64,000 nt of DNA from Deltaproteobacteria bacterium (GCA_015494155.1 WGBU01000011.1:874-64873), one strand, 5' to 3'. Positions 2,126 through 39,542 are shown, counted from the stretch's first letter. A program made the numbers and translations. The notes: generated by a model from the letters alone, not told the origin.

Positions 2126-4552
2126 ATGAATTTCTTTAGGCGATTTTACTCTTTTAAAATGGCCATCCCAGGGATAGTCGGTGTCATGTTTTTAGGTAAT
2201 CTCTTGGCAATAATCACTGGAATCTTTCTAGACCACCACTTGAACCGCCTTTTTGGCACAGAAAGGAGGCTCTTACGGGAACTAGACCTGGTAGAGAGGA
2301 CTCGCTCCATAATTTCATCGGACCCCATTGGTACGGGAGAGATAGAAGGGCTCAGAGGTCTTATTCGAGGTTTCGATGATGGAGATCTGCTTAAGGCCAA
2401 TGGTTCTGTAGAAATCGATCAATTTTTAAAGAAACGGGCCAGTTTCTTGGATAAACTACGGGGATTATTGATGCGCTTAGAAGCTACGCCAAGTGATGGG
2501 GTAGGGCATGTGCAAAATGGTGTCAGTGATTTTCTAAGACAAATCATCCCTACCTTTAAACGCTCTCTTGAAGGGGCTATCAAAAGGGTCGAACGTGATA
2601 TTGAGGGCACAAGGTCTTATTATAAGAAATTATGGGCAGTTCTTTTGGCTGGTGGGATACTATTTATCATCTTCGTGGTATTTTTTAATCAGCGCTATGT
2701 AATCCATCCCCTTTCGTCTGTTATGAGTGCATTGAATGACGCCTCTAAAGGGATCTTTAGAACGGTACTCATCCCCCACGGCCTTAAAGAGGTCAAGGGT
2801 ATCATGACCCTCTACAATATATTTTCAAGCATGATGATGAACATATTCACCACCCTTCGGTCCCAGGAGGATATGATAGATCATGTGAGAGATGCGATTT
2901 CACATTCAGTAAAAAATATAGAGGACTTTAATGAGAAACTGGGTGGGGTTGCCAGTGGCCTTAGTGAGACCTCAGGCCATTCAAGTTTGAGTATAGAGGC
3001 AGTGAACAAGGCCATGCAGGATCTCTCCATAGCTGCCTCGGAGATAGCACATAATGTTCAAAAGGCAGCCGAAAGCGCCAATGGTGCCATGGAGTTGGGA
3101 ACTATGGCCTCGTCTGCCATTGAACGTCTCAATCAGAGCTCTGAAAGGATAGGGGACGTGATAAAGGTGATCAGCACCATTGCAGAGCAGACAAATCTTT
3201 TGGCACTTAACGCCACCATTGAGGCAGCAAGGGCAGGGGAGGCAGGCAAGGGATTTGCCGTAGTAGCCAATGAAGTGAAGGAGCTTGCAAAACAGACTGC
3301 CCAGGCCACCGAGGAGATCACCCAGATGGTAAAGACCATCCAAGGAGATACCCAAGGGGCAGTGGAGTCTGTGAATCAGATGACCCAATCTGTAGAACAG
3401 GTCACAGACCTGGCCAATACCATAGCCAGTGCCACAGAAGAACAGACTGCCACTATATCGGAGATAACAGGAAACGTAGAGCAGGTGAGCAACCTAGTCG
3501 GTGGTCTTGAAACCCAGGCAACAGGCCTAAAAGAGGAGATGGAAAGGCTAGAAGATATGAACCGCGACCTAGTAGTATGTGCAAAGGGTATGGACATGGT
3601 CAAGGAAGAGGCATCTAATCTCAATGCACAGATCATGGTGGACTCAGGCCTCACTCATGAGCTTATGGCGTTGATACCAGAAGAGCAAAGGGTGAATACA
3701 GTCCTATTTCAACACCTCCAGTGGCGTGAGAAGGTGGTGGGTGCCATTATCTCAAGGGTGCCTCCAGAGGTCGAGACAGATCCAACGCGTTGTGGGCTAG
3801 GGAGATTTCTCAAGTCCTACTCTCCCACTGAACATACAATAAAACAGATATTGGATCGTCTGATACCAGTGCACGAGACAATGCACCGCAGGGTAGTGGA
3901 GATACAGGACATGACAGTGAGGGGTGAAAGGCGTCAGACCATATTGAACTATTTCATAGAGAATGTTGAACCCCACTTCAATGAGGTCATCCTCCTCTTA
4001 AACAAGTGGAGTTCATTCTTAAGGGGACAGGGTAGCGATCTTGGGCTGGAAAATCCCAATGATAAGGTGAGAATGGCCGGAAATGTGGTTACACCACAAC
4101 AAACTAGCGGGAGCCCTCGATTAAAAAACAATGAAATCGCCCAGAGGAATTTCATTAAATGGGGACCAAATTTTTCAGTGGGTATAAGAGAGATAGATGA
4201 ACAGCACGAAAAACTCGTCTCAATGGTTAATCAGCTCTACGCAGCTTATCAAATGGGAAAAGACAGAGATGTGGCCTCAAAGCTACTGGATGAACTCATA
4301 AATTATACCATCTATCACTTTAATACAGAAGAAAGATATTTTGATCAGTTTGGCTATCCAGAGGCAGATTCACACAAGCGGATCCACGAAGAGCTTGCAA
4401 AGAAGGTACTCCGATTTAAAGATCGACTCGATAGAGGCGAGACAGGGGTTGCAAGGGAACTCCTCAATTTTTTGAAGGATTGGCTGTCCAATCACATTTG
4501 TATTACAGACAGGCGGTACTCCAGTTTTTTCCACGAGAAAGGATTAAAATAA
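2126..4552 (+). CDS. Methyl-accepting chemotaxis protein with cytoplasmic CZB (zinc-binding) and C-terminal hemerythrin domains
   Basis: 808 aa. Two TM segments flank a ~135-aa periplasmic region. The MCP signalling hairpin reads [37 protein letters not shown], and [10 protein letters not shown] is a canonical methylation site. The CZB signature is HLQW-x22-CGLGRF-x21-HETMH. The hemerythrin ligand pattern is [43 protein letters not shown] lies upstream of the ATG. Confidence 0.85.
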
Positions 4553-4560
4553 AAATAGTA

Positions 4561-4588
4561 TTGACTTTTAACTAAAAAAGATTATCAT
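4561..4588 (+). promoter_or_regulatory. Sigma-70-like promoter for the rubredoxin gene
   Basis: TTGACT (4561-4566), a 16-nt spacer, then TATCAT (4583-4588), about 25 nt upstream of the ATG at 4613. Sequence-pattern call only. Confidence 0.35.
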
Positions 4589-4612
4589 TCACAAAAAAAG
4601 TGGAGGTTAGCC

Positions 4613-4771
4613 ATGCAGAAGATGGAATGCCCTTGTGGCTACATCTATGACCCAGAGGTAGGAGACCCAGACAATGGCATAGAGCCAGGCACACCTTTTG
4701 AAGACCTGCCAGACGATTGGGTGTGTCCAAAGTGCGGGGCAGAAAAAGAGCACTTTTACCCAGCGGATTAA
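4613..4771 (+). CDS. Rubredoxin (52 aa, below the ORF-track length cut-off)
   Basis: Manual translation gives [52 protein letters not shown]. The signature is rubredoxin along the whole length, SD GTGGAGG lies 6 nt upstream, and a terminator lies downstream. The first knuckle is CxC rather than CxxC (see findings). Confidence 0.85.
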
Positions 4772-4790
4772 AGACTAAAAAACAGCCAAC

Positions 4791-4816
4791 GGCCCAGTGA
4801 TTGCTGGGCCTTTTTT
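4791..4816 (+). terminator. Intrinsic terminator after rubredoxin
   Basis: GGCCCAG-tgattg-CTGGGCC hairpin (4791-4810) followed by TTTTTT (4811-4816). It sits between convergent genes. Confidence 0.6.
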
Positions 4817-6023
4817 ATTGGTCATAATCCTTTAATGCAGGTAGTGAAAAATAGAATATAGTGCCGTCCTTGCGATTAGGTAAAGGACTAATTAGGCCAA
4901 TATTGCCCCCATGTGCCTGGATGATCTCTTTACAAAAGGATAGACCAAGCCCCACCCCAAAGAAACAACTCTTTTCTCTGTCTTTGTCGCCTTTTACGAA
5001 TGGATCAAAGATCTGGTCTTTCACCTCTTCTGGGATGGGAACCCCTTTATTTTCCACTGCACATAAAATCTCGCCCCTTTTCACGTCCTTCACCTTTAGT
5101 GGAAGGTCTCTTTCCGGCCTCTGGTAAAAGGCGTGGACAGTTATATTGGAGTCCATGGGCGAGTGTTTAATTGCATTGTCCATGAGATTTGTGAGCACGC
5201 GTCCTATAAGCCTTCGATCTGCTTTAATAATAAGACCTTCTTCCAATAGCCCCTTTTTAATCTCGATACCCTTTCTAGAGGCGCTGCCCTCCTCCAAAAA
5301 AATGGTCTCTTGGACTTGTTCGCCCAGGTCAAAGGCCTCCAGTTCTAGGTGGAGTCGCTTTTCCCTGGCCGCAGTAAGTGCCAGCATGTCTTCAAGGAGC
5401 TCAGATTCCTTTTGAATGGCGTTTTGCACTCTCGATATGATCTCCCTGTGCCTGTCCGTTAGACTATCATCCATAGCGAGGAGTGACAAAAATCCCATGG
5501 CACTGGTTAGCGGTGTCCTGAGGTCGTGGATCAGCATCCTGGTATGCCATTCACGTATCTCAAGTGCCTTTCGCGTCTGACAGCTCTCATGCCTCCACTT
5601 GTCTGTGGCCTGTTTTCTCCCGAGGATGGTCTGGAGTTTACTCGCCAAAAGCGTAGGGGTAACAGGCCGGCTTATATAGTCGTCTGCACCATATTGTAGG
5701 CCTTCTATGGCATGTTCATCATCCATGAGCTGGGCTGTCATGAGGACTACAGGTATGTCACAGGTCTTTTCATTTCCTTTTATCTGTTTACACAGTTCGA
5801 AACCGGTCATACCAGGCATCATCACGTCTGACAGCACTAGGTCTATGTCTCCAAGTTGGCTCTCGAGGATCTTTAGGGCCTCAATGCCACTCGTAGTGGA
5901 AATGACCCTGTAGCCCTCTCTTTTGAGGATTTCAGAAAAGACAAAAAGATTGTCCTCGAGGTCATCCACTAACAAAATTGTTGCCCTAACGGATTTTTCT
6001 CTCTCTGGCGTTGGCCTATTCAT
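4815..6023 (-). CDS. Receiver-histidine kinase (REC-HisKA-HATPase)
   Basis: 402 aa. The N-terminal REC reads ILLVDDLEDN..LVLSDVMMPGMTG. The H-box is IHDLRTPLTS, with N/G boxes LMDNAIKHS and GVGLGLSFCKEI. Confidence 0.85.
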   Translation of the reverse strand: MNRPTPEREKSVRATILLVDDLEDNLFVFSEILKREGYRVISTTSGIEALKILESQLGDIDLVLSDVMMPGMTGFELCKQIKGNEKTCDIPVVLMTAQLMDDEHAIEGLQYGADDYISRPVTPTLLASKLQTILGRKQATDKWRHESCQTRKALEIREWHTRMLIHDLRTPLTSAMGFLSLLAMDDSLTDRHREIISRVQNAIQKESELLEDMLALTAAREKRLHLELEAFDLGEQVQETIFLEEGSASRKGIEIKKGLLEEGLIIKADRRLIGRVLTNLMDNAIKHSPMDSNITVHAFYQRPERDLPLKVKDVKRGEILCAVENKGVPIPEEVKDQIFDPFVKGDKDREKSCFFGVGLGLSFCKEIIQAHGGNIGLISPLPNRKDGTIFYFSLPALKDYDQ

Positions 6024-6053
6024 GGTCCTCTGTCCCCTATCTAGCCGTGTGTA

Positions 6054-8783
6054 TCAAAGCCATTTTTCGAGAATAGAGAATAAGTCATTAGTATCAAAAG
6101 GTTTAGAGATATAATCATCCAGACCTGAATTTAGAATGAACTCCCTGTCGCCCTTCATGGCCTTTGCAGTAAGGGCGATTATTGGTGGAGGGCTACTACT
6201 TTTTATTCTTATCTCTCGAGTTGCACTTATACCGTCCATCTCTGGCATCTGTATATCCATGAGTATGAGGTCAGGCCGCTCCTTTAATGCGAGTTCCACT
6301 GCCTCTTTTCCATTGGAAGCATGAATGATCTCGAAACCCCTGGGTCTCAACATCTCATTCAATAGAAAGAAGTTGTCTGGATTGTCTTCTGCCACCAATA
6401 TTTTGGGCCTCCTTTCTCCCTCATCCGTAGCATCTCCTTTTCCACCAGCCTCTCTTTTGGCCCTGTCCATGATCTCCTTGGGGAGTAGTAGGGCATTTAT
6501 CTGGTTTTTAAGGTCCTCTTGTCTGATGTTTCCCTTCTGTAAGATGGACTTCACATTGGGGGGAAAGAGTCGCTTTGTATCGCTGTCCACATCTAGGCTA
6601 CTCAATACCAAGACTGGGATGTCCCTGGTGGCGTCGTCTCTCGTCATCTCTCGTAAAAATGCAAAACCATCCATTACTGGCATCTTGAGGTCGAGCAACA
6701 CGATGTCGGGCAATTGCTCCCTGAGTACCTTGAGTCCTACCAATGGGTTGCTACAATAGAGTACCTCAAAACCGGCCTGTTTTAGTGCTGTGCTGACCTC
6801 TTTTCCAACCAGTAGGTCATCATCTACCAAAAGGACCCTCTTTGAACTCTGGCGGTCATCCACCTCCTTAGGGGCGTCTTCGCCTGGAGAGGCGCTTTCT
6901 TGTGGGTAGAGAAGTGTATTTTTTAGCCTCTTTTTCCATTCCTCATCGGGCATCCTGTATTTGCTCCTGCGGTCCACAGGGATCAGGACCTTGAATGTGG
7001 TCCCCTTGCCTACCTCACTCTCTACACTAATCTCCCCTCCCAAAAGGGTGGAGAGCTTCTTGCATATGCTTAGTCCAAGGCCAGTACCTCCATATTTTCG
7101 GGTATATGACCCATCAACCTGTCTAAAGGGCTCGAAGATGAACTCTAGGGCATCCTCTGGTATCCCAATACCCGTGTCTGAGACGGTAAACCTGATAAAG
7201 TCCCTATCCTTTCCCTCTACTCCGTCTACTTTCAGTAGGACCATCCCAGATTCAGTGAACTTTATGGCGTTCCCTAGGAGATTGACCAGGATTTGGCGCA
7301 CCTTTTTTGAGTCTGAATAGATGGTCTTTGGGGCATGGTCTATGTCGCACTTGAATTCGAGGCCCTTTGACTCTGCGAGGGGAAGCATCGCCTTACATAC
7401 ACCTGTGACAAAGTCTGGCACATATATAATGTCGTAGTGAAGCTCTTCCCGCCCAGATTCGATACGTGTGAGATCGAGTATGTCGTTTATGAGGTCCAGC
7501 AGATTTTGTCCGTTTCTCAATACTATGTCCAGATACTCCTGTTGCCTTGGTGAGAGTGGGTGCTCTTGGTCCTCTTTGAGTAGCCGTACGAGGCCCAGTA
7601 TGGAATTAAGTGGGGTGCGGAGTTCGTGGCTCATATTAGACAGGAATACAGACTTCATCCTGTTGGCCTCTTCAGCCTCGATACTCTTTTGTTCAAGGGC
7701 GTCCTTCTGCGCAGCTAGCTCCTCTGCCTGTGCCTGTATCTCCTCTGTCTGGGCCATTAATTCTTCGCTCTGTGCCTGGAGTTCCTCGTTTTGTGCCTGG
7801 AGCCTTTCATTCTTTTCCTGCAGTTCCTGTTGAAGTCCCTTGAGCCGCTCTATGAAAAATGCATTCTGGATGGCCACTGCCAGTTGTCCGCAAAGTCCCT
7901 TGAAGAAAGGGCCATAGGGTTTTAGCGATTGAAGAGAAGAGAGTTCCAACATGCCAAGGCGATTTTCCTTTATAGTAAAGGGGAGGAAAACGAGGTGGAG
8001 GCGTTTGGCTTCGAAGAGGCCTGATTTCAACTTCATATAGTCAGGTGGTACATCCTCCAAGAAATAGGCCTCTTTTCTCTTGAAGACCTCACCGAAGAGC
8101 CCTTCTTTGCACCCTATAGGGGGTGGCGTGTGTGTTAGACCAATACCGTGGACACCTACTAGGGTCTCTCCATCGTCATGGCTCACCACATAAAAGGCAC
8201 CAGAGAGAATTGGTAGAAACTCTACAAGGGCTTCCAGTACGCGTTGCGCCATGGCCTCGATCTCCACCTCTTCATTCAAGATCTTGGAGATCTCATATCC
8301 AAGTTCCAACTCCTTTAGACGATGCTCTAACTCCCTGTTTTTCTTCTCAAGGCTCTTGGAGAAGGCCATGAGGTCGCTCTGATCTGTAATGGCCTCGATG
8401 ATCCCAATAATCTCACCCTTTTCATTAAAAAAAGGTGTCGCCCTGCATGTGGCTGGAAACGAAGTACCGTTCCACAATATGCATTCAAAGTGCTGTACCA
8501 CCTCCCTTTCACCATTGAGGATGAGCCTTACAGGGCATTCGTCTGTATTGCAGAGGGTATCGCTCCTGGCGATCTCATAGCAGCGTTTACCAATGATCTG
8601 TGGATCCAACACCTGGCACAACGAATTCATGGCCGGGTTGTGGGCGAGGATTGAAAAGTCTGTACCTACAATCCTTATGGGAGTAAGACCCTGGTGGTAC
8701 AACTGATAAACCGCCTCGTAGGTCAATATCCCATCGTCATCATATATGGAAATCGTGGGATTTTTGCGAGGAATGGGTATCAT
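6054..8783 (-). CDS. Hybrid sensor histidine kinase (Cys-rich PAS, GAF, Gln/Glu-rich coiled coil, HisKA, HATPase, two REC domains)
   Basis: 909 aa. The H-box is MSHELRTPLNS, with ATPase boxes LLGNAIKFT, DTGIGIP and GGTGLGLSICKKL. REC1 reads VLLVDDDLL..LLDLKMPVMDG and REC2 reads ILVAEDNPDN..LMDIQMPEMDG. Confidence 0.85.
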   Translation of the reverse strand: MIPIPRKNPTISIYDDDGILTYEAVYQLYHQGLTPIRIVGTDFSILAHNPAMNSLCQVLDPQIIGKRCYEIARSDTLCNTDECPVRLILNGEREVVQHFECILWNGTSFPATCRATPFFNEKGEIIGIIEAITDQSDLMAFSKSLEKKNRELEHRLKELELGYEISKILNEEVEIEAMAQRVLEALVEFLPILSGAFYVVSHDDGETLVGVHGIGLTHTPPPIGCKEGLFGEVFKRKEAYFLEDVPPDYMKLKSGLFEAKRLHLVFLPFTIKENRLGMLELSSLQSLKPYGPFFKGLCGQLAVAIQNAFFIERLKGLQQELQEKNERLQAQNEELQAQSEELMAQTEEIQAQAEELAAQKDALEQKSIEAEEANRMKSVFLSNMSHELRTPLNSILGLVRLLKEDQEHPLSPRQQEYLDIVLRNGQNLLDLINDILDLTRIESGREELHYDIIYVPDFVTGVCKAMLPLAESKGLEFKCDIDHAPKTIYSDSKKVRQILVNLLGNAIKFTESGMVLLKVDGVEGKDRDFIRFTVSDTGIGIPEDALEFIFEPFRQVDGSYTRKYGGTGLGLSICKKLSTLLGGEISVESEVGKGTTFKVLIPVDRRSKYRMPDEEWKKRLKNTLLYPQESASPGEDAPKEVDDRQSSKRVLLVDDDLLVGKEVSTALKQAGFEVLYCSNPLVGLKVLREQLPDIVLLDLKMPVMDGFAFLREMTRDDATRDIPVLVLSSLDVDSDTKRLFPPNVKSILQKGNIRQEDLKNQINALLLPKEIMDRAKREAGGKGDATDEGERRPKILVAEDNPDNFFLLNEMLRPRGFEIIHASNGKEAVELALKERPDLILMDIQMPEMDGISATREIRIKSSSPPPIIALTAKAMKGDREFILNSGLDDYISKPFDTNDLFSILEKWL

Positions 8784-8788
8784 GGACT

Positions 8789-9655
8789 TTAAGTCTCCTT
8801 GACGTAAATCTTGTGTTCTCTACTAAAGAGGGTGAATTTTTCCCTCATATGTCCTGAAAGACCTTCTGCCTTACCTAGAACGAGAAAACCCTTTGGCCTC
8901 AAGGCCTGATAGACCTTGTGGAGCATGCGCGCCTTCATCTGGTCGTCATAGTATATGAGCACATTTCTGAGAAACACCATGTCGAACTCTGCAAATACAC
9001 CGCTAGGGGGCGAAGTGAATTCCTGTGTGGTGCAGTCAAACTGGAGGAAGAACACCATTTCTTTGAGGGATGGGGCCACTGCATAGAGTTCTTCTTCACT
9101 CGATTGTAGTCTAGTAAAATATGAGGGATATTCTACAAGGGCGCTGGCCACTGATTCTGGCGAATAAATGCCCCGCTGTGCCATCTTTATGGCCACAGGG
9201 TCCACATCTGAGCCAATGATCGTTGCCTCCACACCGTTTGCCCATGGTCTTTCCCTTTTGAATTCGAGAATGAGTATGCCTACGGAATATGCCTCTTCCC
9301 CAGTGGCACATGCGGCACACCAGACCCTCACAGGCCCCCTCTGTCTAAAAAGTTCTGGCAACACAGCATCCTTTATGGTGTGGAACACCTTGGGATCTCG
9401 AAAAAATTTACTCACCTTTATTGTGAGAGAATCAAACAGTCTTTGATATTCGGTTGGTTCTCGTTTGAGGAGCCTCAGATAGTCCTGTAAGGTATGGCAC
9501 CTGGTGAGAATGAGCCTCCTGTTTATACGGCGAAGGAGGGTCGTCTTCTTGAAGTGGGAAAAGGGGCACCCAGACCACTTCTCCATTAGGGAGACGATCT
9601 CATCGAGGGCATTCCTCTCATCATTGGCCATGGGTGAACAATATTCTCGGTACAT
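8789..9655 (-). CDS. cheR: CheR-type protein-glutamate O-methyltransferase
   Basis: 288 aa. A CheR N-terminal helical domain is followed by the SAM-binding motif VWCAACATGEEAYSVGILI. The alternative start M9 (9631) would shorten the overlap with the upstream gene. Confidence 0.85.
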   Translation of the reverse strand: MYREYCSPMANDERNALDEIVSLMEKWSGCPFSHFKKTTLLRRINRRLILTRCHTLQDYLRLLKREPTEYQRLFDSLTIKVSKFFRDPKVFHTIKDAVLPELFRQRGPVRVWCAACATGEEAYSVGILILEFKRERPWANGVEATIIGSDVDPVAIKMAQRGIYSPESVASALVEYPSYFTRLQSSEEELYAVAPSLKEMVFFLQFDCTTQEFTSPPSGVFAEFDMVFLRNVLIYYDDQMKARMLHKVYQALRPKGFLVLGKAEGLSGHMREKFTLFSREHKIYVKET

Positions 9656-10967
9656 ATTCTATGATCTCAGTTACTGTCCCCTCATCCATTTTCAAGAGGG
9701 CAAGTGTGTCTGTATCTAATATGTTGGACATGGTGTCGCACCCAAGACCAATACCTAGCATGTTACATATATAATTTGACACATGGACAATACCCACGAG
9801 TTCTTTTGAGTCATCTGTCTTGTGTGGTTCGTGATGGTATGAAATGGCCCTTACTAGGGCATTGGGTAGGCCCCATTCTTGGGCCACAAATTTCCCCAAT
9901 TCAGCATGGTCTGTTCCAAGGCACTCCTTTTCTGCCAAAAAGAAGGGGATCCTCTTTATTGATGCACTCATCTTAACAGTAATAAAGGTATTGGTAAAAT
10001 TTTGTTCTACCAAAATCTTGCCTATATCGTGCATCAAGGCAGCCAGATACGCCTCTTCTGGGTCTGCAATTGCCAGTCTGTCTGCCAAAAATTGGGACAG
10101 TTCAGCACAGGCTACTGCGTGGTGAAAGAAGGCCTGGTCATCGAGCTCGTAGCCTTTAAATGGCTTGCTGTATAGCCCTTTTATGCACGCCTGCATGACG
10201 ATCTTCTTAAACGTAGTAGTGCCCAGTAGGTTAATGGCATGGGATAGCTTGGTGATCTGGCGCTGTAGTCCATAGCGTGCAGAATTGACAATTCCGAGGA
10301 TGCGGCCACAGAGTACCTGGTCCTTTAATATGAGTTCTTCCAATTCCCTGAAGCATATATCGTCACCCCTTACCAGTTGAAGCGCCCTTATGGCCACATT
10401 GGAGTCTGGCTTAAGTTCACTCGCCATCTTTCTAAGGCTATTTTCATCCAGTCTTGGGGCCTTGGGGCGTGGTTCGTCTTTGTCCCCTATAAGACCTCCT
10501 TTTGCCCCCCTTGATCGTTTTATCTCCACCTCTCCTGTGGGAAGAGTCAACTTGAGTCTTCTTCCCACAGAGCCACCCACATCCATGGAAATAATTGGGA
10601 TCGCGTATGCATCTAGGATTTCCTTGGCCTTAATGGTGTTTCGTTTGCCGATATTGAGGTCTTGGATAGCCCCCTTTGTTACGATGTGGGCTCCGCCTGC
10701 CATGTGGGCGACAATCCCAGACATAGTGGCACCCTTTTCGAGCAGAGCATCAATGAGTGCTGGTATTGCACTTTGTGCATAGTAAAGAGGGGTCTCCTCC
10801 ATCTTGTGTGTGGGGCCAGAGGGGAGTAGCACATGTACTACTCCACCTGCCTGTGCATCCTGATCATAAAGGGCAAGCCCAATACAGGAGCCAAGCAGTG
10901 TCTCAAGCACTGCCTCCTCCCGGCAGGATACTACCATGTCTCCGGGTTCGATAAGTGTGTATTTCAT
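9621..10967 (-). CDS. CheD (chemoreceptor glutamine deamidase) fused to an HDOD domain
   Basis: The N-terminal ~155 aa show the CheD pattern (MKYTLIEPGDMVVS..LETLLGSCIGLALYD..GGVVHVLLP..MAGGAHIV..IGKRN..MDVGGSVGRRL). The C-terminal ~280 aa show the HDOD pattern (ILGIVNSARYGLQRQITKLSHAINLLG..HHAVACAEL..LMHDIGKIL). I start at ATG 10967; the track ORF begins at GTG 10991. Confidence 0.8.
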   Translation of the reverse strand: MKYTLIEPGDMVVSCREEAVLETLLGSCIGLALYDQDAQAGGVVHVLLPSGPTHKMEETPLYYAQSAIPALIDALLEKGATMSGIVAHMAGGAHIVTKGAIQDLNIGKRNTIKAKEILDAYAIPIISMDVGGSVGRRLKLTLPTGEVEIKRSRGAKGGLIGDKDEPRPKAPRLDENSLRKMASELKPDSNVAIRALQLVRGDDICFRELEELILKDQVLCGRILGIVNSARYGLQRQITKLSHAINLLGTTTFKKIVMQACIKGLYSKPFKGYELDDQAFFHHAVACAELSQFLADRLAIADPEEAYLAALMHDIGKILVEQNFTNTFITVKMSASIKRIPFFLAEKECLGTDHAELGKFVAQEWGLPNALVRAISYHHEPHKTDDSKELVGIVHVSNYICNMLGIGLGCDTMSNILDTDTLALLKMDEGTVTEIIEYVPRILFTHGQ

Positions 10968-11009
10968 TTTTTGATGGGTGCACGCACCCAACTACCGTGA
11001 ACGCCGTGG

Positions 11010-11213
11010 TCACCCACAAGACTCGAGGTGCGCCATCTTCTTTTTGTATTCCTCGTAAGAGATTTCACCATTTATATATCTTCTATGCACCTTCTTTTTC
11101 GGATCTTCAAGGAATTTTTTTAAAAAATTTTTTTCTTTTGTGAGGAACAGTACAAAGATGATGACAACGAGTCCAAAGAACACTAAGACGCTCTGTAGAT
11201 CACTCATGGCCAA
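11010..11213 (-). CDS. Small membrane protein with a SHOCT-like C-terminal motif
   Basis: 67 aa with one TM (VLVFFGLVVIIFVLFL). The tail RRYINGEISYEEYKKKMAHL resembles the RYARGEI-EEEY SHOCT motif. Confidence 0.5.
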   Translation of the reverse strand: MAMSDLQSVLVFFGLVVIIFVLFLTKEKNFLKKFLEDPKKKVHRRYINGEISYEEYKKKMAHLESCG

Positions 11214-11338
11214 GACTCCATGTGGGATGCAAAATGATTCGTTATTGTACCAACTTTTAGGAGGTGTGGCAAACTTGTCAAACTCCTCTCTCTGGTGCTA
11301 TAAAAATGGTTAATAAAAATTTTATTGGGGGCGCTGGT

Positions 11339-11785: not shown

Positions 11786-12659
11786 AGACTGGGACCTCCC
11801 TTAAGACCTTTTTCATGCGCCCCTTATCTTCAAAAAAGTCTCGAAATCCAAGGTCCAAAAAGGCCTCTTTGATCTTTGGGGCAATGCCTCCAGCAATGTA
11901 CACACCACCAAAGGCGAGAGTCTTTAGGGCGAGATTTGCTGCCTCCCTGGCATAGGCCCTTATAAAGAGCCTCACGCACTTAAGTGCAGTGTCTTCTCCC
12001 CTTACAAGCGCCCTTTCTACCACCTCTTTTGGGGTAATGACTTCCCCCTTAAAGTACTCATACGTATGTTGGATGCCAGGCCCAGAGACCACCCTCTCCA
12101 CACTCACATGGCCAAACCTCTTCTGGAGGAACTTATAAAGGCCCCATTCATCCTCATCCATTGGCGAAAAGTCTGTGTGGCCACCCTCTGTGGGGAGGAT
12201 GTGAAACCCCTTTGTCTCACAAGGGACGATGATGGCCTCGCCAAGTCCTGTCCCTGCCCCCAACACGCACCGTGTGCCCTCTCTGGGCCTTACACCGCCC
12301 AACTCAAAGAGTTCCTCTTTTTTTAGGGCAGTGACCCCCCACGCCGCTGCCTCAAAGTCGTTCAATAGATAGACCCTGGCGCCCATCTCCTCTTTAAGGG
12401 CCTTTGCATCTATGGTCCAGGGAAGGTTGACACCTCGTGCCACACCATCCTCCACTGTTCCTGCTACCCCAATGGAAAGACAATTTACCTCGTTGCTCTC
12501 AAGACCACGTTCTCTTATATAGGTCTTTAGGATCGCCTCAAAACTCTCGAACCCAGACGATGGCCAGACACGCACTGCCTCAAGTTCCCTATTGGCGTAT
12601 TGGGCGAGTCTTGAGTTAGTCCCCCCTATGTCTGCCACAATGGTCAAGGCCATCTTCAC
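11718..12659 (-). CDS. glk: Glucokinase
   Basis: 313 aa. The N-terminus is ADIGGTNSRLA, followed by GAGTGLGEA and a GGIAPKI..LLGAG tail typical of the Glk family. Confidence 0.8.
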   Translation of the reverse strand: MKMALTIVADIGGTNSRLAQYANRELEAVRVWPSSGFESFEAILKTYIRERGLESNEVNCLSIGVAGTVEDGVARGVNLPWTIDAKALKEEMGARVYLLNDFEAAAWGVTALKKEELFELGGVRPREGTRCVLGAGTGLGEAIIVPCETKGFHILPTEGGHTDFSPMDEDEWGLYKFLQKRFGHVSVERVVSGPGIQHTYEYFKGEVITPKEVVERALVRGEDTALKCVRLFIRAYAREAANLALKTLAFGGVYIAGGIAPKIKEAFLDLGFRDFFEDKGRMKKVLREVPVFICLHPYLGLLGAGIRSDHGPM

Positions 12660-13729
12660 ATTCTAATATGCTCTGAAAGCCCCTTGGTCAGGTCGAGAAC
12701 CCGTTCTGCCAACTCCTCACTCAGAAGCCCTGTCCCGCAACTTGGCGTAATAAGGCTTGAGCGGACGATCTCCTCCCTTGTAAGGCCAAGGGCCTTTTGG
12801 GCCTCAAAGAATCTATTGGCGAGATCCTCCACGCTCGCATCCACTATATCGTCTTCCCTCTGGGTGGGGACGAGTCCCCATGCAATTACTCCACCCCGCT
12901 CAAGAAAGCCCAGTATCTCATCCTTAAATATGAGGAATCGGTCGAGGTATCCAAATGCATCGAAGCTAATAATATCTAGCTCAAGTACTGGGTCCAAGAG
13001 GAGGGACCACTCTGTATTGGCGCACACATGGATTCCACAAAGTGCATCTGCCTGGTGCACCTCGTCGATTACGGACTTTAAGTCCTTTTGTACCTCTTCA
13101 CGCTTCATTCCCACCATGGTGGACGAGCCAAAGCCGGCAAGTGCTGGTTCATCCAAAAAGACAATGGCACGATCGGCCCTTTCCCTGAGCTTCTTGGCCT
13201 GAAATGCCGCCTTTAGCCCCACCCCTTGGACAATGGCCTCTTTGAGCTGTGGGTTGTAGTAGGTGAGCCTTCCATCCTTCTCTTTTAGACCAGTTAGGAG
13301 GGTAAAGGGCCCTGTGATCTGGCCCTTGAGGGCATATGGAGGTGGGTTGAGCCCCTCAACCTTTTTCAAAAAGATGAAAAGACCCGGGGCGCGTTCCTTA
13401 GAGATGGCGAATATGGAGTCCTCAATGGCCTTAGCACCCTCTTTTACTGCAAGGTATTCCTCAAAAAAGGCGAGAAAGTCCTGTTCAAATGTGGGTGAAT
13501 TCGTGTCGAAATAGATGGACCCACCTTCTTCGTCCTCTACGAGCCCTGGAAAGCCCTCTACAAATTGGGTGAGCAGACGCTCTTTGGGATACTTGGGGAG
13601 TTGGACCCATATGGGGCAATCCTCCATATACTTTAGCACAAGGTCTTGGGCGGTCTCATGGTCTCTGTGGGGGAGGCTCCCTATGAGGGTGGCCATCGCC
13701 CCTGGTCTAAAATTATCTAAAGGTGCCAT
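12656..13729 (-). CDS. MetE-C-terminal-like (core-MetE type) zinc methyltransferase-family protein
   Basis: 357 aa. FLDEPALAG matches the MetE IDEPAL motif, and HVC...SCGTG matches the MetE HxC/C zinc ligand pattern. The function is not established. Confidence 0.5.
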   Translation of the reverse strand: MAPLDNFRPGAMATLIGSLPHRDHETAQDLVLKYMEDCPIWVQLPKYPKERLLTQFVEGFPGLVEDEEGGSIYFDTNSPTFEQDFLAFFEEYLAVKEGAKAIEDSIFAISKERAPGLFIFLKKVEGLNPPPYALKGQITGPFTLLTGLKEKDGRLTYYNPQLKEAIVQGVGLKAAFQAKKLRERADRAIVFLDEPALAGFGSSTMVGMKREEVQKDLKSVIDEVHQADALCGIHVCANTEWSLLLDPVLELDIISFDAFGYLDRFLIFKDEILGFLERGGVIAWGLVPTQREDDIVDASVEDLANRFFEAQKALGLTREEIVRSSLITPSCGTGLLSEELAERVLDLTKGLSEHIRM

Positions 13730-35862: not shown

Positions 35863-36351
35863 ATGGGAAACATATCTTATATGCGCTGCCTTTTCATAGT
35901 AGCTACTATTTTGCTTTTTGCAAAGCCCGCCTTCGCAGTCCAGGTCCATGGCCCACCCGAAGGACTTTATGTCCATATTATAGCCCACATCTTCTTTTCC
36001 TCGGCCATAATCTTCTTGCTCTTTCTTTTTAAGAGACACCCACCTGGAAGGGGTACACCATGGCGCTATCTCAGATGGAGCCTGTTCATGTTCCTACTCT
36101 GGAACATAGATACCCTGATAGTCCATATCCTCTCCATAGGCATACCTGAGGCCGCACTTCACATGCCAGAGGATATCTTTCAACACGCACTCCTCCCCCC
36201 TATTACTGCCAAGGAGATATTGTTTTATGTATTGAGAAACGACCATCTCCTGTGTGTACCTGCAATGCTATTCCTGGTGTTGAGCCTCCGCTCATTTTTG
36301 AGGGAGCCAGGTGGGGAAAACGATACATTCTATCCTGAGGGAAAAGGGTGA
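35863..36351 (+). CDS. Integral membrane protein translationally coupled to the sensor kinase
   Basis: 162 aa with about 4 TM helices. An alternative start at ATG 35881 gives the signal-like MRCLFIVATILLFAKPAFA. The stop TGA overlaps the kinase GTG start (GTGA). Confidence 0.5.
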   Translation: MGNISYMRCLFIVATILLFAKPAFAVQVHGPPEGLYVHIIAHIFFSSAIIFLLFLFKRHPPGRGTPWRYLRWSLFMFLLWNIDTLIVHILSIGIPEAALHMPEDIFQHALLPPITAKEILFYVLRNDHLLCVPAMLFLVLSLRSFLREPGGENDTFYPEGKG

Positions 36352-37916
36352 ATAGGCCACTACCACTCTTTCCAATATATCTAGTGGACTTCCTTGGTGC
36401 CATATTGATGGTGGTCCTCTCTATAATGGCACTGCGCTATGCTAAGCAGTTGAAAGACAGGCATCCTAAGAGTGTTCTCTTCTCATATCTCTTCTGGCTC
36501 TCCTTATCCTTTGTGGCCCTATCTATCTCCAGGAGCTTTGGCCATGCAGTGAGATTCATACTGGTATTCCTGGGAGAACCAGAACTCTGGCGAGTGATCA
36601 GGCCCTTGAGTGGTGGGCTCAATACCATGACATTTGTCTCTGTTGGGATTTTGACATTCTATTACCCCAATATAAGAGGGGTGATGAAACTTGTAAGGGA
36701 CGAGGCCCAGGCGGTAAAGCGTGCCAAAGAGGAGCTTGAGAAGGCACACAAGGAGCTTCGTGAATTAAACCGGACCCTTGAAGATAGGGTGCGCGAGCGC
36801 ACCCAAGAACTCATGCTCTCGCAGCAAAAGTTTAAACGCCTCTTTGAAAATTCAAAGGACGCCATCTTCTTTTGCGATGACATGGGGTGTATTTCAGACA
36901 TGAACAGGAGTGGTATAGAACTCTTGGGATATGAGAGAAAGGAAGATGTCCTGGGCCGGCCGATGAAGGCATTCTTTAGAGACCAGAATGACTGGAGGAA
37001 ATACTATACCAGTATTTGTAGGAACGGGTTCATCAAGGACTTCGAGACCGAGATCCTGAAAAAGGATGGCTCTACGATCAATGTGATAATCAGTGCTGCT
37101 GCAATTATAAATGAACATGGAGAGACCACTGGCTGCGAGGGGATCGCCAAGGATATCACATCGTTCAAGAAGATGACCGAAAAGCTTGTCTATTCTGAGA
37201 AGATGGCGGCCATAGGACAGCTCGCTGCTGGCGTGGCCCATGAGATAAACACACCACTTGGAATCATCTTGGGTTACACCCAGCTCCTAAAGGAGGACTT
37301 CGAAAAGGACCCCAATGTGCTCCAAGACCTGGAGATAATGGAAAAGCAGGCAAAGAACTGTAAACGCATTGTCTCTGACCTCTTGAGTTTTGCGAGGTCT
37401 ACGTCCAGTGGTACCAGTGAGGAGGTGGATGTGAATGAGTGTCTCATACAGACCACGGCGCTCATACGCCATTCCCTAGAGATGGATCAGATCGAGTTGG
37501 AGCTGAGGTTGGCCGAGTCTGTGCCAAGGATCGTTGGGGACAAAGACAGGATCAGCCAGGTGTTCCTAAACATATTGACAAATGCACACCAGGCCATTGG
37601 TGAAAAAGGACACGTTTTGATCGAGACCTACTATGACGATTCGGCCAAGTCTGTAATAGTGAGGATAGCAGATTCAGGACCAGGCGTCCCAGACGAGATT
37701 AAGCACAAGATGTTCGATCCATTCTTTACTACAAAGCCTGTGGGTAAGGGTACTGGACTGGGGCTTAGCGTGTCTTATGGTATAATTCAGGAATTAAAGG
37801 GGACTATTGAGGTCATATCACCTCCAAAGGACCCAGAGTATCTCAAGATGGGGTTGAATACCGAGTTTAGGATTCAACTCCCAGTGAGTGGGCTCACCAA
37901 GGGAAAGGAGGTGTGA
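36348..37916 (+). CDS. Membrane sensor histidine kinase (TM bundle, coiled coil, PAS, HisKA, HATPase)
   Basis: 522 aa. The H-box is [11 protein letters not shown], with N/G boxes [14 protein letters not shown] and [14 protein letters not shown]. Confidence 0.85.
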
Positions 37917-37919
37917 GCA

Positions 37920-38123
37920 ATGGCAGAAAAGAAGGTCACCAAACGCCCGTGGCGGAAGCATAAAGAATTTAAGTGCCATGTGTGTAATCGGGAGCTTCCC
38001 TTCTGCTGGAATTGCCCCTGTGGATTTCAGATATGCGATGATTGCCTAAAAGAGAATCTATGGGGTATGAGTAATGGCCCCACTTGGATCTGTCCAGACT
38101 GTGGTCGTGTAAGGATGTTTTAG
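37920..38123 (+). CDS. Cys-rich zinc-ribbon-like micro-protein inside the two-component operon
   Basis: 67 aa with 9 Cys arranged CxxC-x6-CxxCxC-x4-CxxC-x15-CxxC. It starts 3 nt after the kinase stop and is directly abutted by the regulator gene. Confidence 0.55.
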   Translation: MAEKKVTKRPWRKHKEFKCHVCNRELPFCWNCPCGFQICDDCLKENLWGMSNGPTWICPDCGRVRMF

Positions 38124-38129
38124 TTGGCC

Positions 38130-39542
38130 ATGAGCAAAGAGGCAAAGATACTCATTGTGGACGACGAAGAGGATCTCTGCACCATGTTGAAGCGGCTCTT
38201 TGAGAGAAAAGGGCCATATTCTGTGATCACATCCAATTCACCTTTTGAGGCACTTAAGATAGTCAAGGAATGGCGTCCTGATGTGGTGGTGACTGATGTA
38301 AAGATGGATGGGATGGACGGGATAGAACTCCTTAGGAGGATTCAAGACGTTGATTCTTATTGTTCCACCATTGTGATAAGTGGTTTTGGTACAGTGGAGA
38401 TGGCAGTGGACGCCATAAAGCTTGGGGCCTACGACTTTCTCGAAAAGCCCTTTGACAACACAAAGGTGCTCCATACTGTCAAACGTGCTGTGGAGCGCAC
38501 CAGGCTCCTCAGGGAGAATGCCAGGCTATCTCAGGCAGTGCGTACCGAGTATGACTTTTATGGTATTGTGGGGTCGTCGCCTGCCATCCAGGAGGTGAAG
38601 CGGCTCATCGAGCAAGTGGCAGCCTCTGATGAGACAGTGCTTATACAAGGTGAGAGCGGTACCGGAAAAGAGCTTGCAGCACGGGCCATACACGCCCTAA
38701 GCCCTCGCAGAAAAAAGAGGATGATCACCGTAAATTGTGCTGCCCTTCCAGAAAATATCTTGGAGAGTGAGCTCTTCGGCTATGAAAAGGGGGCATTTAC
38801 TGGGGCGCTTCAGAGGAAGAAGGGGCTTTTTTTTGAGGCACAGGGATCTACCATCCTCTTGGACGAAATAGGCGATATGCCCGTATCACTCCAGACAAAG
38901 CTCTTGAGGGTATTGCAGGAGAAGGAGATAAGGCCCCTTGGCTCTACACGCGACATCCCCATTGATGTCAGGGTCATCGCCTCCACAAATCAGGACCTAG
39001 AGGAGGGGATAAATAGGGGTACCTTCAGGGCAGACCTCTATTATCGGCTAAATGTTGTCACTATCACCATGCCCCCACTACGGGAGATGAGGGGGGACAT
39101 CCCCATACTCGCAAACCACTTCCTCAAGAAATTTTCAGTACAGTTCCAAAAAGAGGGCCTAAATTTTTCAGAAGATGCACTGGTCTGTCTCTCTGAGAGG
39201 GCGTGGCGCGGCAATGTCAGAGAGCTTGAAAACGCCATAAAGCGCGCGGTGTTACTCAACGAATCTGGTCTCATTGAGGCAAGGGACATAGTGGGTACAG
39301 GGGGCAACAATGGTGCCATCCCGTGTGGCGAGGGCTTTATGGATTTTCTCGTCAACAGACCCTATGGGGTTGCAAAAAAGGAGCTCGTAACAAGATTTTC
39401 CATTAGTTACTTGAAGCACGTGTTAAATAAGACTGGCGGAAACGTCTCTGAGGCAGCCAGGGTAAGCGGCATGGAGCGCCAGGCCCTACAACGTCTTATG
39501 AGGCAATATGGCATCCGGTCTGCCGATTTTAAATCCCATTAG
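38130..39542 (+). CDS. Sigma-54-dependent response regulator (NtrC/AtoC family)
   Basis: The REC reads ILIVDDEED..VVTDVKMDGMDG. The AAA+ domain has Walker A GESGTGKE and the GAFTGA loop (EKGAFTGAL), and a C-terminal Fis-type HTH is present. I use ATG 38130; the track starts at TTG 38124. Confidence 0.9.
   Translation: MSKEAKILIVDDEEDLCTMLKRLFERKGPYSVITSNSPFEALKIVKEWRPDVVVTDVKMDGMDGIELLRRIQDVDSYCSTIVISGFGTVEMAVDAIKLGAYDFLEKPFDNTKVLHTVKRAVERTRLLRENARLSQAVRTEYDFYGIVGSSPAIQEVKRLIEQVAASDETVLIQGESGTGKELAARAIHALSPRRKKRMITVNCAALPENILESELFGYEKGAFTGALQRKKGLFFEAQGSTILLDEIGDMPVSLQTKLLRVLQEKEIRPLGSTRDIPIDVRVIASTNQDLEEGINRGTFRADLYYRLNVVTITMPPLREMRGDIPILANHFLKKFSVQFQKEGLNFSEDALVCLSERAWRGNVRELENAIKRAVLLNESGLIEARDIVGTGGNNGAIPCGEGFMDFLVNRPYGVAKKELVTRFSISYLKHVLNKTGGNVSEAARVSGMERQALQRLMRQYGIRSADFKSH

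Follow-up and report, generated by a model that had tools for sequence, protein, structure and literature searches.

A deltaproteobacterial operon joining CheR and a CheD-HDOD fusion to two histidine kinases: a candidate methyl-accepting histidine kinase system

Four tightly packed genes and their products

This report concerns a four-gene operon on a 64,000-nucleotide (nt) stretch of DNA, here called the window, from a Deltaproteobacteria bacterium (GCA_015494155.1, WGBU01000011.1:874-64873). A CheD-HDOD fusion protein and a CheR-family methyltransferase are encoded there beside a hybrid histidine kinase and a second kinase composed of receiver (REC), HisKA, and HATPase domains, and we consider the set a candidate system in which the sensor kinase itself accepts methyl groups. 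The four genes lie on one strand (Table 1), the first two overlapping by 35 nt (9621 to 9655) and the others following after gaps of 5 nt (cheR to hybrid kinase) and 30 nt (hybrid kinase to REC-kinase), which bears out the tight packing claimed in a preliminary description made from the sequence alone. The domains named in that description were recovered for all four proteins in a Pfam scan, each above its gathering cutoff, and these include CheD and HDOD, the two assignments on which the description had staked its reading. None of the four genes contains a frameshift. An alternative upstream start, TTG at 10991, would lengthen the fusion protein to 456 amino acids.

In the fusion protein, the Pfam matches are to CheD (PF03975; E value of 1.3e-23, 83.7 bits against a cutoff of 25), HDOD (PF08668; 2.9e-47, 161 bits), and HD (5.8e-14). 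The CheD half aligns with Thermotoga maritima CheD, and its catalytic Cys28 and His45 are invariant across nine fusion proteins; the active-site Thr is kept in six of the nine and is a Ser in one. An AlphaFold2 (AF2) model with a predicted local distance difference test score (pLDDT) of 82.6 showed two domains and a disordered linker at residues 153 to 169. Foldseek matched the CheD part of the model to T. maritima CheD (2f9z_C; template modeling [TM] score of 0.85, root mean square deviation of 1.9 Å) and the HDOD part, an all-helical HD-related fold, to a Geobacter HDOD protein (3hc1; TM score of 0.70). Residues H283, H313, D314, H354, H378, and H379 are invariant in the nine fusion proteins and identical in 3HC1, which binds two Fe ions through five His and one Asp (PMC12075610). 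The HDOD domain appears to retain the full di-metal ligand set, and metal binding is predicted; we infer the one-to-one match with the 3HC1 ligands, since PMC12075610 gives no residue numbers.

The fusion is uncommon, as the preliminary description had supposed. CheD and HDOD occur together in at least 10 clusters at 90% identity among 5.8 billion proteins, a lower bound set by a search that depends on a word index, and a scan of species-representative genomes found CheD-HDOD in about ten species. No mention of CheD together with HDOD was found in open-access papers and preprints. Among NCBIfam models, the CheD domain scores best against the Thermotoga "glutamine deamidase/glutamate methylesterase CheD," reaching 98.9 bits against an equivalog cutoff of 240.

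The product of the second gene matches CheR (PF01739; 140.6 bits, E value of 5.5e-41) and CheR_N (PF03705; 38.9 bits), the Pfam cutoff being 27 for each, and conserves the S-adenosylmethionine (SAM)-type motifs FFRD and WxAACATGEE (WCAACATGEE). Against the NCBIfam CheR equivalog it reaches 116 bits, with a cutoff of 435. Judged by these scores, the CheD and the CheR are true members of their families and not standard chemotaxis enzymes.

The hybrid kinase has the Pfam order PAS_9/PAS_4, GAF_2, HisKA, HATPase_c, and two Response_reg domains, with H386, D655/D656, D698, and K750 invariant in seven orthologs. Its PAS region contains four cysteines (C68, C78, C83, and C101) that are kept in five cytoplasmic orthologs and in Dissulfuribacter thermophilus and are missing from two orthologs of the membrane/HAMP type; they may form a metal or Fe-S (redox) sensing site. 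The fourth protein consists of REC (residues 16 to 130), HisKA (163 to 217), and HATPase (269 to 396) domains by Pfam, with no other sensor, and fits the architecture of a REC-controlled histidine kinase of the LvrB type; it is the last gene of the module in relatives too. A phosphorelay had been proposed in the preliminary description. None of the four proteins has an Hpt domain by Pfam, and this absence rules out a classical His-Asp-His-Asp phosphorelay, the arrangement being a hybrid kinase plus a REC-controlled kinase.

The earlier statement that cheA, cheW, cheB, and cheY are lacking was verified for the 64-kb window by tblastn with the full Che protein set of a Syntrophales che cluster and that of Escherichia coli. 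No CheA, CheW, CheB methylesterase, CheX, or CheZ was found there; CheC was not among the queries. A partnership of CheD with CheX and methyl-accepting chemotaxis proteins (MCPs) was not seen, there being no CheX homolog in the window and the one nearby MCP not being conserved with the module.

Glutamate-pair heptads and a separate CheR clade

The helix that runs from the GAF to the HisKA domain of the hybrid kinase carries four in-phase heptads, each with a pair of glutamates (E333/E334, E340/E341, E347/E348, and E354/E355), and the heptads end 28 residues ahead of the phospho-accepting His386. When seven orthologs were aligned, the stretch LQ-AQNEELQ-AQSEELM-AQTEEIQ-AQAEELA-AQKDALE was nearly invariant. 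Column identity to the window kinase is 83% in the four heptads, 73% in HisKA, 66% in the ATPase domain, and 52% over the whole protein, making the heptads the best-conserved segment of the kinase; in D. thermophilus, all four heptad sites are identical. The methylation-site pattern [ASTG]xx[EQ][EQ]xx[ASTG] matches the hybrid kinase only at 330, 337, 344, and 351, which are the four heptads, and gives no match in the REC-kinase. In E. coli Tar, the same pattern gives seven matches that include all four known sites (Q295, E302, Q309, and E491, with pattern starts at 291, 298, 305, and 487), and the 7-residue spacing of sites 1 to 3 equals that of the kinase heptads. The kinase has no MCPsignal domain (PF00015) in Pfam, and its heptads do not lie in an MCP four-helix bundle. 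With Leu or Ile at position d and Asn, Ser, Thr, or Ala at position a of the inferred register, the Glu pairs would fall at b and c, on the exposed face. A single-sequence AF2 model of the fragment comprising this helix, the DHp, and the CA domain was poor (pLDDT of 51.6); it drew one long helix that starts where GAF ends and passes through the heptads toward His386, confident for residues 296 to 355 only.

Related repeats were sought with phmmer, using a 60-residue segment of the helix against 1.84 billion representative proteins in an exhaustive search. There were 118 matches, about 85 of which had three to eleven in-phase A-Q-[NSTAG]-E-E-[LI]-Q heptads; a word-index protein search with a 65-residue segment gave no match, probably because the segment was masked. 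The repeat marks mostly GAF/PAS/HAMP histidine kinases: among the 59 longest repeat proteins, HisKA was found in 48, GAF in 33, HAMP in 15, and SpoIIE in 7, these last ending in SpoIIE instead of a kinase.

Gene neighborhoods were surveyed at 80 metagenome loci that had been picked by the repeat alone and annotated with local hidden Markov models (HMMs), the CheB model covering the methylesterase part only. CheR lay within 1.2 kb of 23 of the 61 repeat-bearing kinases and of none of the 35 repeat-free kinases (Fisher P = 8e-6); where at least 1 kb of flank was present on both sides, the count was 11 of 33. The neighboring CheR genes are usually directly upstream or downstream of the repeat kinase on the same strand, and every one of the 21 methyltransferases tested is a Pfam CheR. 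Since their median pairwise identity is 29%, the link spans many lineages and is not one lineage counted repeatedly. In one repeat kinase with a different sensor (4HB_MCP-CHASE3-GAF), the CheR gene overlaps the start of the kinase gene. Among the relatives' loci, which are labeled L001 to L173, CheR and a CheB methylesterase that stands alone come after a repeat kinase in L161, and CheD-HDOD comes after one in L094. About 7% of the in-phase pairs are EQ, QE, or QQ, including the third heptad of the kinase in L009, a CheD-HDOD locus; by analogy with MCPs, Gln-containing pairs would be the kind of site on which the deamidase acts. The repeat was present in the kinase of all nine distinct module copies that contain both CheR and a kinase, and this is an independent check for the eight reached through CheD-HDOD, the ninth (L098) having been reached through the repeat.

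Two further kinds of gene were seen in the survey. A REC-SpoIIE (PP2C phosphatase) gene lies beside CheR on the opposite strand in L115 (8653 to 9792), L117, L124, L155, and L162, Pfam-checked in L115 and deduced in the others from size (380 amino acids) and a REC match; it may be the output of those repeat-kinase and CheR systems. Hybrid kinases of about 1,420 to 1,470 amino acids with Reg_prop/Y_Y_Y domains also carry the repeat and have no CheR nearby (L109, Pfam-checked; L119, L121, L123, and others).

A fusion of the same elements in one chain was found in Rhizobium sp. N621. The plasmid-encoded protein WP_064812453 (1,323 amino acids) has the order CheB_methylest-CheR_N-CheR-[[52 protein letters not shown]]-PAS_10-PAS-HWE_HK, and its repeat consists of seven heptads S-T-N-E-E-L-x. 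JGI often gives the name "CheB/CheR fusion protein" to short proteins that combine the S-T-type repeat with PAS_10. Only S-T-type repeats were seen in such a cis fusion of writer, eraser, and kinase. Among the A-Q-type proteins, none of 59 had CheR or CheB in its own chain, the link there being one of gene neighborhood.

A neighbor-joining tree of 48 CheR sequences separated 10 che-type CheRs from 37 kinase-linked CheRs plus that of L009 in 100 of 100 bootstraps, with the window CheR and the entire module group on the kinase-linked side. The che-type set comprised E. coli CheR, seven sequences from loci with a CheA match, and two without detected context, and it includes the CheRs that lie beside unfused CheD and HDOD; the "CheA" context label of L009 is an HMM cross-hit. 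An Arg equivalent to E. coli R53 in helix alpha2 is present in the window CheR and in the kinase-type CheRs, which usually have a second Arg beside it (RR). In E. coli, this Arg53 is said to contact the substrate helix, a finding attributed to Shiomi et al. in 2002. The window CheR is best described as a predicted protein-glutamate methyltransferase of a kinase-associated clade.

Distribution of the module and its genomic surroundings

Examination of the gene neighborhoods of CheD-HDOD homologs, which the preliminary description had suggested, found the module in other loci (L001, L002, L003, L009, L010, L011, L098, and L173), in the same order and with unrelated flanks, and for this reason the four-gene arrangement is not a chance one. 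At least nine lineages besides that of the window share it. The copies come from Dissulfuribacter (L173), Syntrophobacteraceae (L009), Desulfobulbia (L011), Nitrospiria (L010), and further metagenome-assembled genomes (MAGs), with hybrid kinases 33 to 61% identical. An additional stand-alone REC gene is present in L003, L009, and L011, and CheD and HDOD are separate adjacent genes in the Nitrospiria copy. Neither CheA nor CheW was found in L001 to L003, L009 to L011, or L173, and a CheA-CheW-MCP core encoded together was seen neither in these modules nor in the window. The module has a culturable host, D. thermophilus. Its type strain has an ortholog of the fusion (WP_067619871, 58% identical) in a fully syntenic locus (L173; GCA_001687335.1, contig MAGO01000011.1), and the 90%-identity cluster of the window fusion includes an MAG protein labeled D. 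thermophilus; on these grounds the window is assigned to a relative of Dissulfuribacter (Thermodesulfobacteriota). Two features of single copies may be recorded: in L011 (3798 to 5128) the CheD-HDOD gene is split in two frames (3798 to 4019 and 4004 to 5128) by a frameshift or an assembly error, and L001 (1 to 7619) has a complete and unrelated type I-C CRISPR-Cas set (Cas3, Cas5d, Csd1, Cas7, Cas4, and Cas1) beside the module.

CheD-HDOD also occurs outside the module. Orphan fusions, 27 to 31% identical, lie amid housekeeping genes in L012 to L019 and L006 with no CheR or kinase nearby; that of L017 is from the cultured Desulfatitalea alkaliphila, and that of L006 has a second HDOD gene after it. 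Unfused CheD and HDOD are neighbors inside complete che clusters in L073, L026, L030, L065, and L079, and in 2008 an HD-domain gene had been reported from che clusters of Geobacter (PMC2577667). Because the unfused pairs sit in complete che clusters, CheD and HDOD are taken to function as a conserved pair whose origin is chemosensory. The order in L073, a Syntrophales locus, is CheR-CheD-HDOD-CheY-CheX-CheD-CheB-CheA-CheY-CheX; its two CheD paralogs lie beside HDOD (6716 to 7126) and beside CheB (8850 to 9359), and CheY and CheX are each present twice. The che clusters of Desulfobacterota/Geobacteraceae (the Geobacter "group alpha" of PMC2577667 and the L073 type) resemble the window in having CheR, CheD, and HDOD side by side, with the same HDOD metal-ligand set. 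They differ in that L073-type clusters have CheA, CheB, CheY, CheX, and a che-type CheR, whereas the window has classical kinases and a fused CheD-HDOD. The fusion probably descends from the unfused che-cluster pair, and the window operon, to judge from these neighborhoods, is a chemosensory CheD-HDOD pair moved into a two-component setting.

The nearest MCP does lie on the opposite strand, as the preliminary description had stated. It is a membrane protein with a C-terminal hemerythrin domain and one consensus methylation site, and together with the rubredoxin gene that follows, it looks like an O2/redox-sensing chemoreceptor, presumably of the DcrH kind. Its synteny is kept in D. thermophilus, where no rubredoxin gene was called. 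A role for this MCP as a conserved partner did not stand: it is syntenic only among Dissulfuribacter relatives and absent beside the more distant module copies, with no MCP beside the module in L001, L002, L003, L009, L010, or L011, and the hemerythrin-MCP was set aside as a conserved substrate.

Upstream of the module is a sigma-70-like promoter match, in a region where promoter-type matches are no more numerous than in shuffled sequence. The small open reading frame (ORF) between this match and cheD-HDOD may head the transcript; a 66-amino-acid ORF with a weak SHOCT match is found at the equivalent place in D. thermophilus (L173, 9760 to 9960). Where the REC-kinase and rubredoxin genes converge, a GC-rich hairpin, a likely terminator, separates their ends. 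Elsewhere the window carries chromosomal housekeeping genes (FtsK, RNase G, glucokinase, ThrRS, PheRS, and EF-G), which rules out a mobile or defense island. Two other loci in the window deserve mention: an ORF between RNase G and glucokinase that has no Pfam match and a weak, subthreshold NCBIfam match to methionine synthase, its synteny being kept in D. thermophilus (359 amino acids), and a second, ordinary two-component system.

Table 1. Positions of the operon, its parts, and neighboring features in the window
Feature	Position	Strand	Remarks
cheD-HDOD fusion gene	9621-10967	minus	448 amino acids from ATG start
CheD domain	~10512-10967	minus
Disordered linker	~10461-10511	minus
HDOD/HD domain	~9648-10415	minus
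cheR-family gene	8789-9655	minus	288 amino acids
Hybrid histidine kinase gene	6054-8783	minus	909 amino acids
PAS cysteines of hybrid kinase	8481-8582	minus	C68, C78, C83, C101
Four in-phase heptads	7710-7796	minus	AQNEELQ AQSEELM AQTEEIQ AQAEELA; residues 330-358, GAF-to-HisKA helix
REC-HisKA-HATPase kinase gene	4815-6023	minus	402 amino acids
Sigma-70-like promoter match	11244-11272	minus	TTGCCA-17-TACAAT, with TG; upstream of module; consensus match only
Small ORF	11010-11213	minus	67 amino acids; one transmembrane helix and SHOCT-like tail; between promoter-like site and cheD-HDOD
GC-rich hairpin	4791-4810		8-bp stem, 6 GC pairs; T-run on plus strand; consensus-type match only
MCP gene	2126-4552	plus	MCPsignal and hemerythrin; CZB just under cutoff
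Rubredoxin gene	4613-4771	plus	After MCP; the pair converges on the module
ORF between RNase G and glucokinase	12656-13729	minus	357 amino acids
Second two-component system	36348-39542	plus	PAS-HisKA-HATPase kinase, then NtrC-type sigma-54 activator

Methylation of a sensor kinase and the alternatives

We put the probability at about 0.55 that the operon encodes a methyl-accepting histidine kinase with a dedicated CheR and CheD-HDOD, a reading that draws on comparative evidence only. The preliminary description had proposed a modification layer acting on, or controlled by, the kinases. The heptads and the CheR clade favor the first part of that proposal, action on a kinase. In the proposed mechanism, the hybrid kinase would sense a signal, possibly redox or metal, through its four-Cys PAS and GAF domains, and CheR would use SAM to methylate the Glu pairs exposed along the input helix, removing up to eight negative charges per kinase chain. 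This loss of charge would alter the stability or register of the dimeric signaling helix and so shift the balance between kinase and phosphatase. The CheD domain would demethylate the sites, deamidate them, or both, thereby reversing or preparing them. Thermotoga CheD is reportedly both a glutamine deamidase and a glutamyl-methylester hydrolase, according to work by Chao et al. from 2006, and because a CheD of that type has both activities, CheR and CheD could make up a complete on/off pair without CheB. HDOD would regulate CheD from the position that REC holds in CheB, coupling it to a second input. That input might be the metal/redox state, a small ligand, or contact with a REC in its phosphorylated form; of these, metal, redox state, and a small ligand are suggested by the intact di-metal site. 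Since there is no Hpt domain, the phosphoryl group would likely flow from His386 to the two RECs of the kinase itself and to the REC of the fourth protein, and the REC-kinase would then signal to an unlinked regulator.

The closest functional comparison is chemoreceptor adaptation, as in E. coli Tar/Tsr and in the CheD-CheC systems of T. maritima and Bacillus subtilis. The enzyme families are the same, with the catalytic residues intact in the window; the site core small-x-x-E/Q-E/Q-x-x-small recurs at heptad spacing; and the logic, neutralization of charge on a signaling helix beside a kinase, would be shared. The window differs in lacking an MCPsignal domain in the kinase and CheA, CheW, and CheX throughout the 64 kb (CheC not having been searched), in fusing CheD to HDOD, and in having a CheR of a separate clade. 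Methylation is proposed to fall on the input helix of a class I HisKA kinase, receptor and kinase being a single protein. The "CheB/CheR fusion protein" kinases (KEGG K13924-type; WP_064812453) likewise unite methylesterase, methyltransferase, EE-heptad helix, and histidine kinase as a unit. In WP_064812453, all of this is in cis, the eraser is CheB, and the repeat S-T-N-E-E-L-x precedes PAS_10, whereas in the window the eraser would be CheD-HDOD and A-Q-x-E-E-L-x directly precedes the DHp. No functional tests of such fusion kinases were found in the open-access literature searched.

Other parts of the operon also have described counterparts. In Leptospira LvrA/LvrB (PMC13269768), a hybrid PAS kinase is likewise followed by a REC-HisKA-HATPase kinase, and REC phosphorylation switches the activity of LvrB by way of a coiled coil that forms (PMC13269768) in what would by analogy be the helix equivalent to the kinase input helix here. 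The Lvr system has no methylation enzymes, unlike the window; the hybrid kinase scores 247 bits against the LvrA NCBIfam model, under its cutoff, and the likeness of the fourth protein to LvrB is by architecture only. The HDOD domain shares its fold with the di-iron protein 3HC1 of Geobacter sulfurreducens, Pseudomonas aeruginosa SadB, Xanthomonas campestris GsmR, and the REC-HDOD protein DVU0330 of Desulfovibrio vulgaris. SadB is an HDOD protein adaptor without the metal ligands (PMC12075610). The window HDOD is fused to CheD, and no described HDOD protein with a CheD fusion was found in the open-access literature.

Several observations weigh against a methyl-accepting kinase. About 60% of the repeat kinases have no adjacent CheR, including the whole Reg_prop/Y_Y_Y family, and for that reason the repeat may be mainly structural. 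The control set of the survey was small (35 kinases), and its loci had been ranked by likeness to the window repeat. Of the 10-residue MCP consensus, the heptads fit no more than the inner positions, with Gln in place of the outer small residues, and the segment would form a two-helix parallel coiled coil and not the antiparallel four-helix bundle of an MCP. The CheR tree was built by neighbor joining only. The CheD and HDOD pairs plainly derive from true che clusters, and an MCP adjoins the module in both the window and D. thermophilus.

The last two points lead to the strongest competitor, which we regard as improbable although well short of negligible: CheR and CheD-HDOD would act in trans on ordinary MCPs, neighboring or elsewhere, and the two kinases would merely control them, for example through HDOD-REC contacts, so that the operon feeds a PAS/GAF-sensed signal into the methylation state of chemotaxis. 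Besides the CheD and HDOD pairs in complete che clusters (L073, L026, L030, L065, and L079; Geobacter, PMC2577667) and the adjoining MCP of the window and of D. thermophilus, which has one consensus site, the retention of Arg53 in CheR fits this account. It is at odds, however, with the lack of an MCP beside six of the module copies and with a window CheR that is not of the che-cluster type (100 of 100 bootstraps), and it leaves unexplained why the linked kinase always has highly conserved EE heptads, why CheR tracks such kinases across many lineages, and why CheB, CheR, repeat, and kinase are fused in Rhizobium.

A less probable account, to which we give only a small share, has the enzymes modify two-component proteins away from the heptads, for example at acidic pairs in REC domains, with the EE helix serving as a docking site or tether for CheR or as a structural signaling helix. 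Salmonella CheR methylates the PhoP receiver domain at EE/ED pairs (PMC8546571), which by analogy is a precedent for CheR acting on a two-component protein that is not an MCP, at paired acidic residues as proposed here; that enzyme is a moonlighting chemotaxis CheR with no dedicated clade, operon link, or repeat, unlike the window. The many repeat kinases without a CheR neighbor, and the repeats in SpoIIE phosphatases, are also compatible with this account. Against it, the heptads match the MCP site pattern and spacing exactly, they are better conserved than the catalytic domains, and CheB-CheR runs straight into the repeat in the Rhizobium fusion. That the genes are neighbors without functional coupling, or that CheD and CheR are decaying relics of a lost che cluster, is very improbable: the equivalog scores are far under their cutoffs (CheD 99 against 240 bits, CheR 116 against 435), but gene order, overlaps, and catalytic residues are kept across several classes and, counting Nitrospiria, two phyla, the window genes have no frameshifts, and the split fusion gene of L011 is on a single MAG contig.

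The operon seems to represent, in stand-alone form, a broader and apparently undescribed pairing between a special CheR clade and histidine kinases with MCP-like methylation heptads. Neither the repeat sequence nor histidine kinases that are methylated or accept methyl groups turned up in a search of open-access papers and preprints, though an earlier description elsewhere is possible. More tentatively, with the odds slightly against it, there may be a widespread class of methyl-accepting histidine kinases that have tandem EE heptads before the DHp, their own ancient CheR clade, and CheB, CheD-HDOD, or nothing as the eraser, of which the window operon would be the most complete stand-alone version.

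Methylation-based sensory adaptation is the textbook trait that separates chemotaxis from ordinary two-component signaling. Methylation on the input helix of a classical sensor kinase, if real, could give the gene-regulatory two-component systems of many bacteria gain control and a short-term memory, and reversible glutamate methylation would not be confined to chemoreceptors. A function would then be at hand for hundreds of "CheB/CheR fusion" kinases, for stand-alone CheRs outside che clusters, and in part for HDOD, and the EE heptad helix would be a simple and portable means by which engineered kinases could be tuned. Four purified proteins from a cultured, sequenced, nonpathogenic thermophile would allow a direct test.

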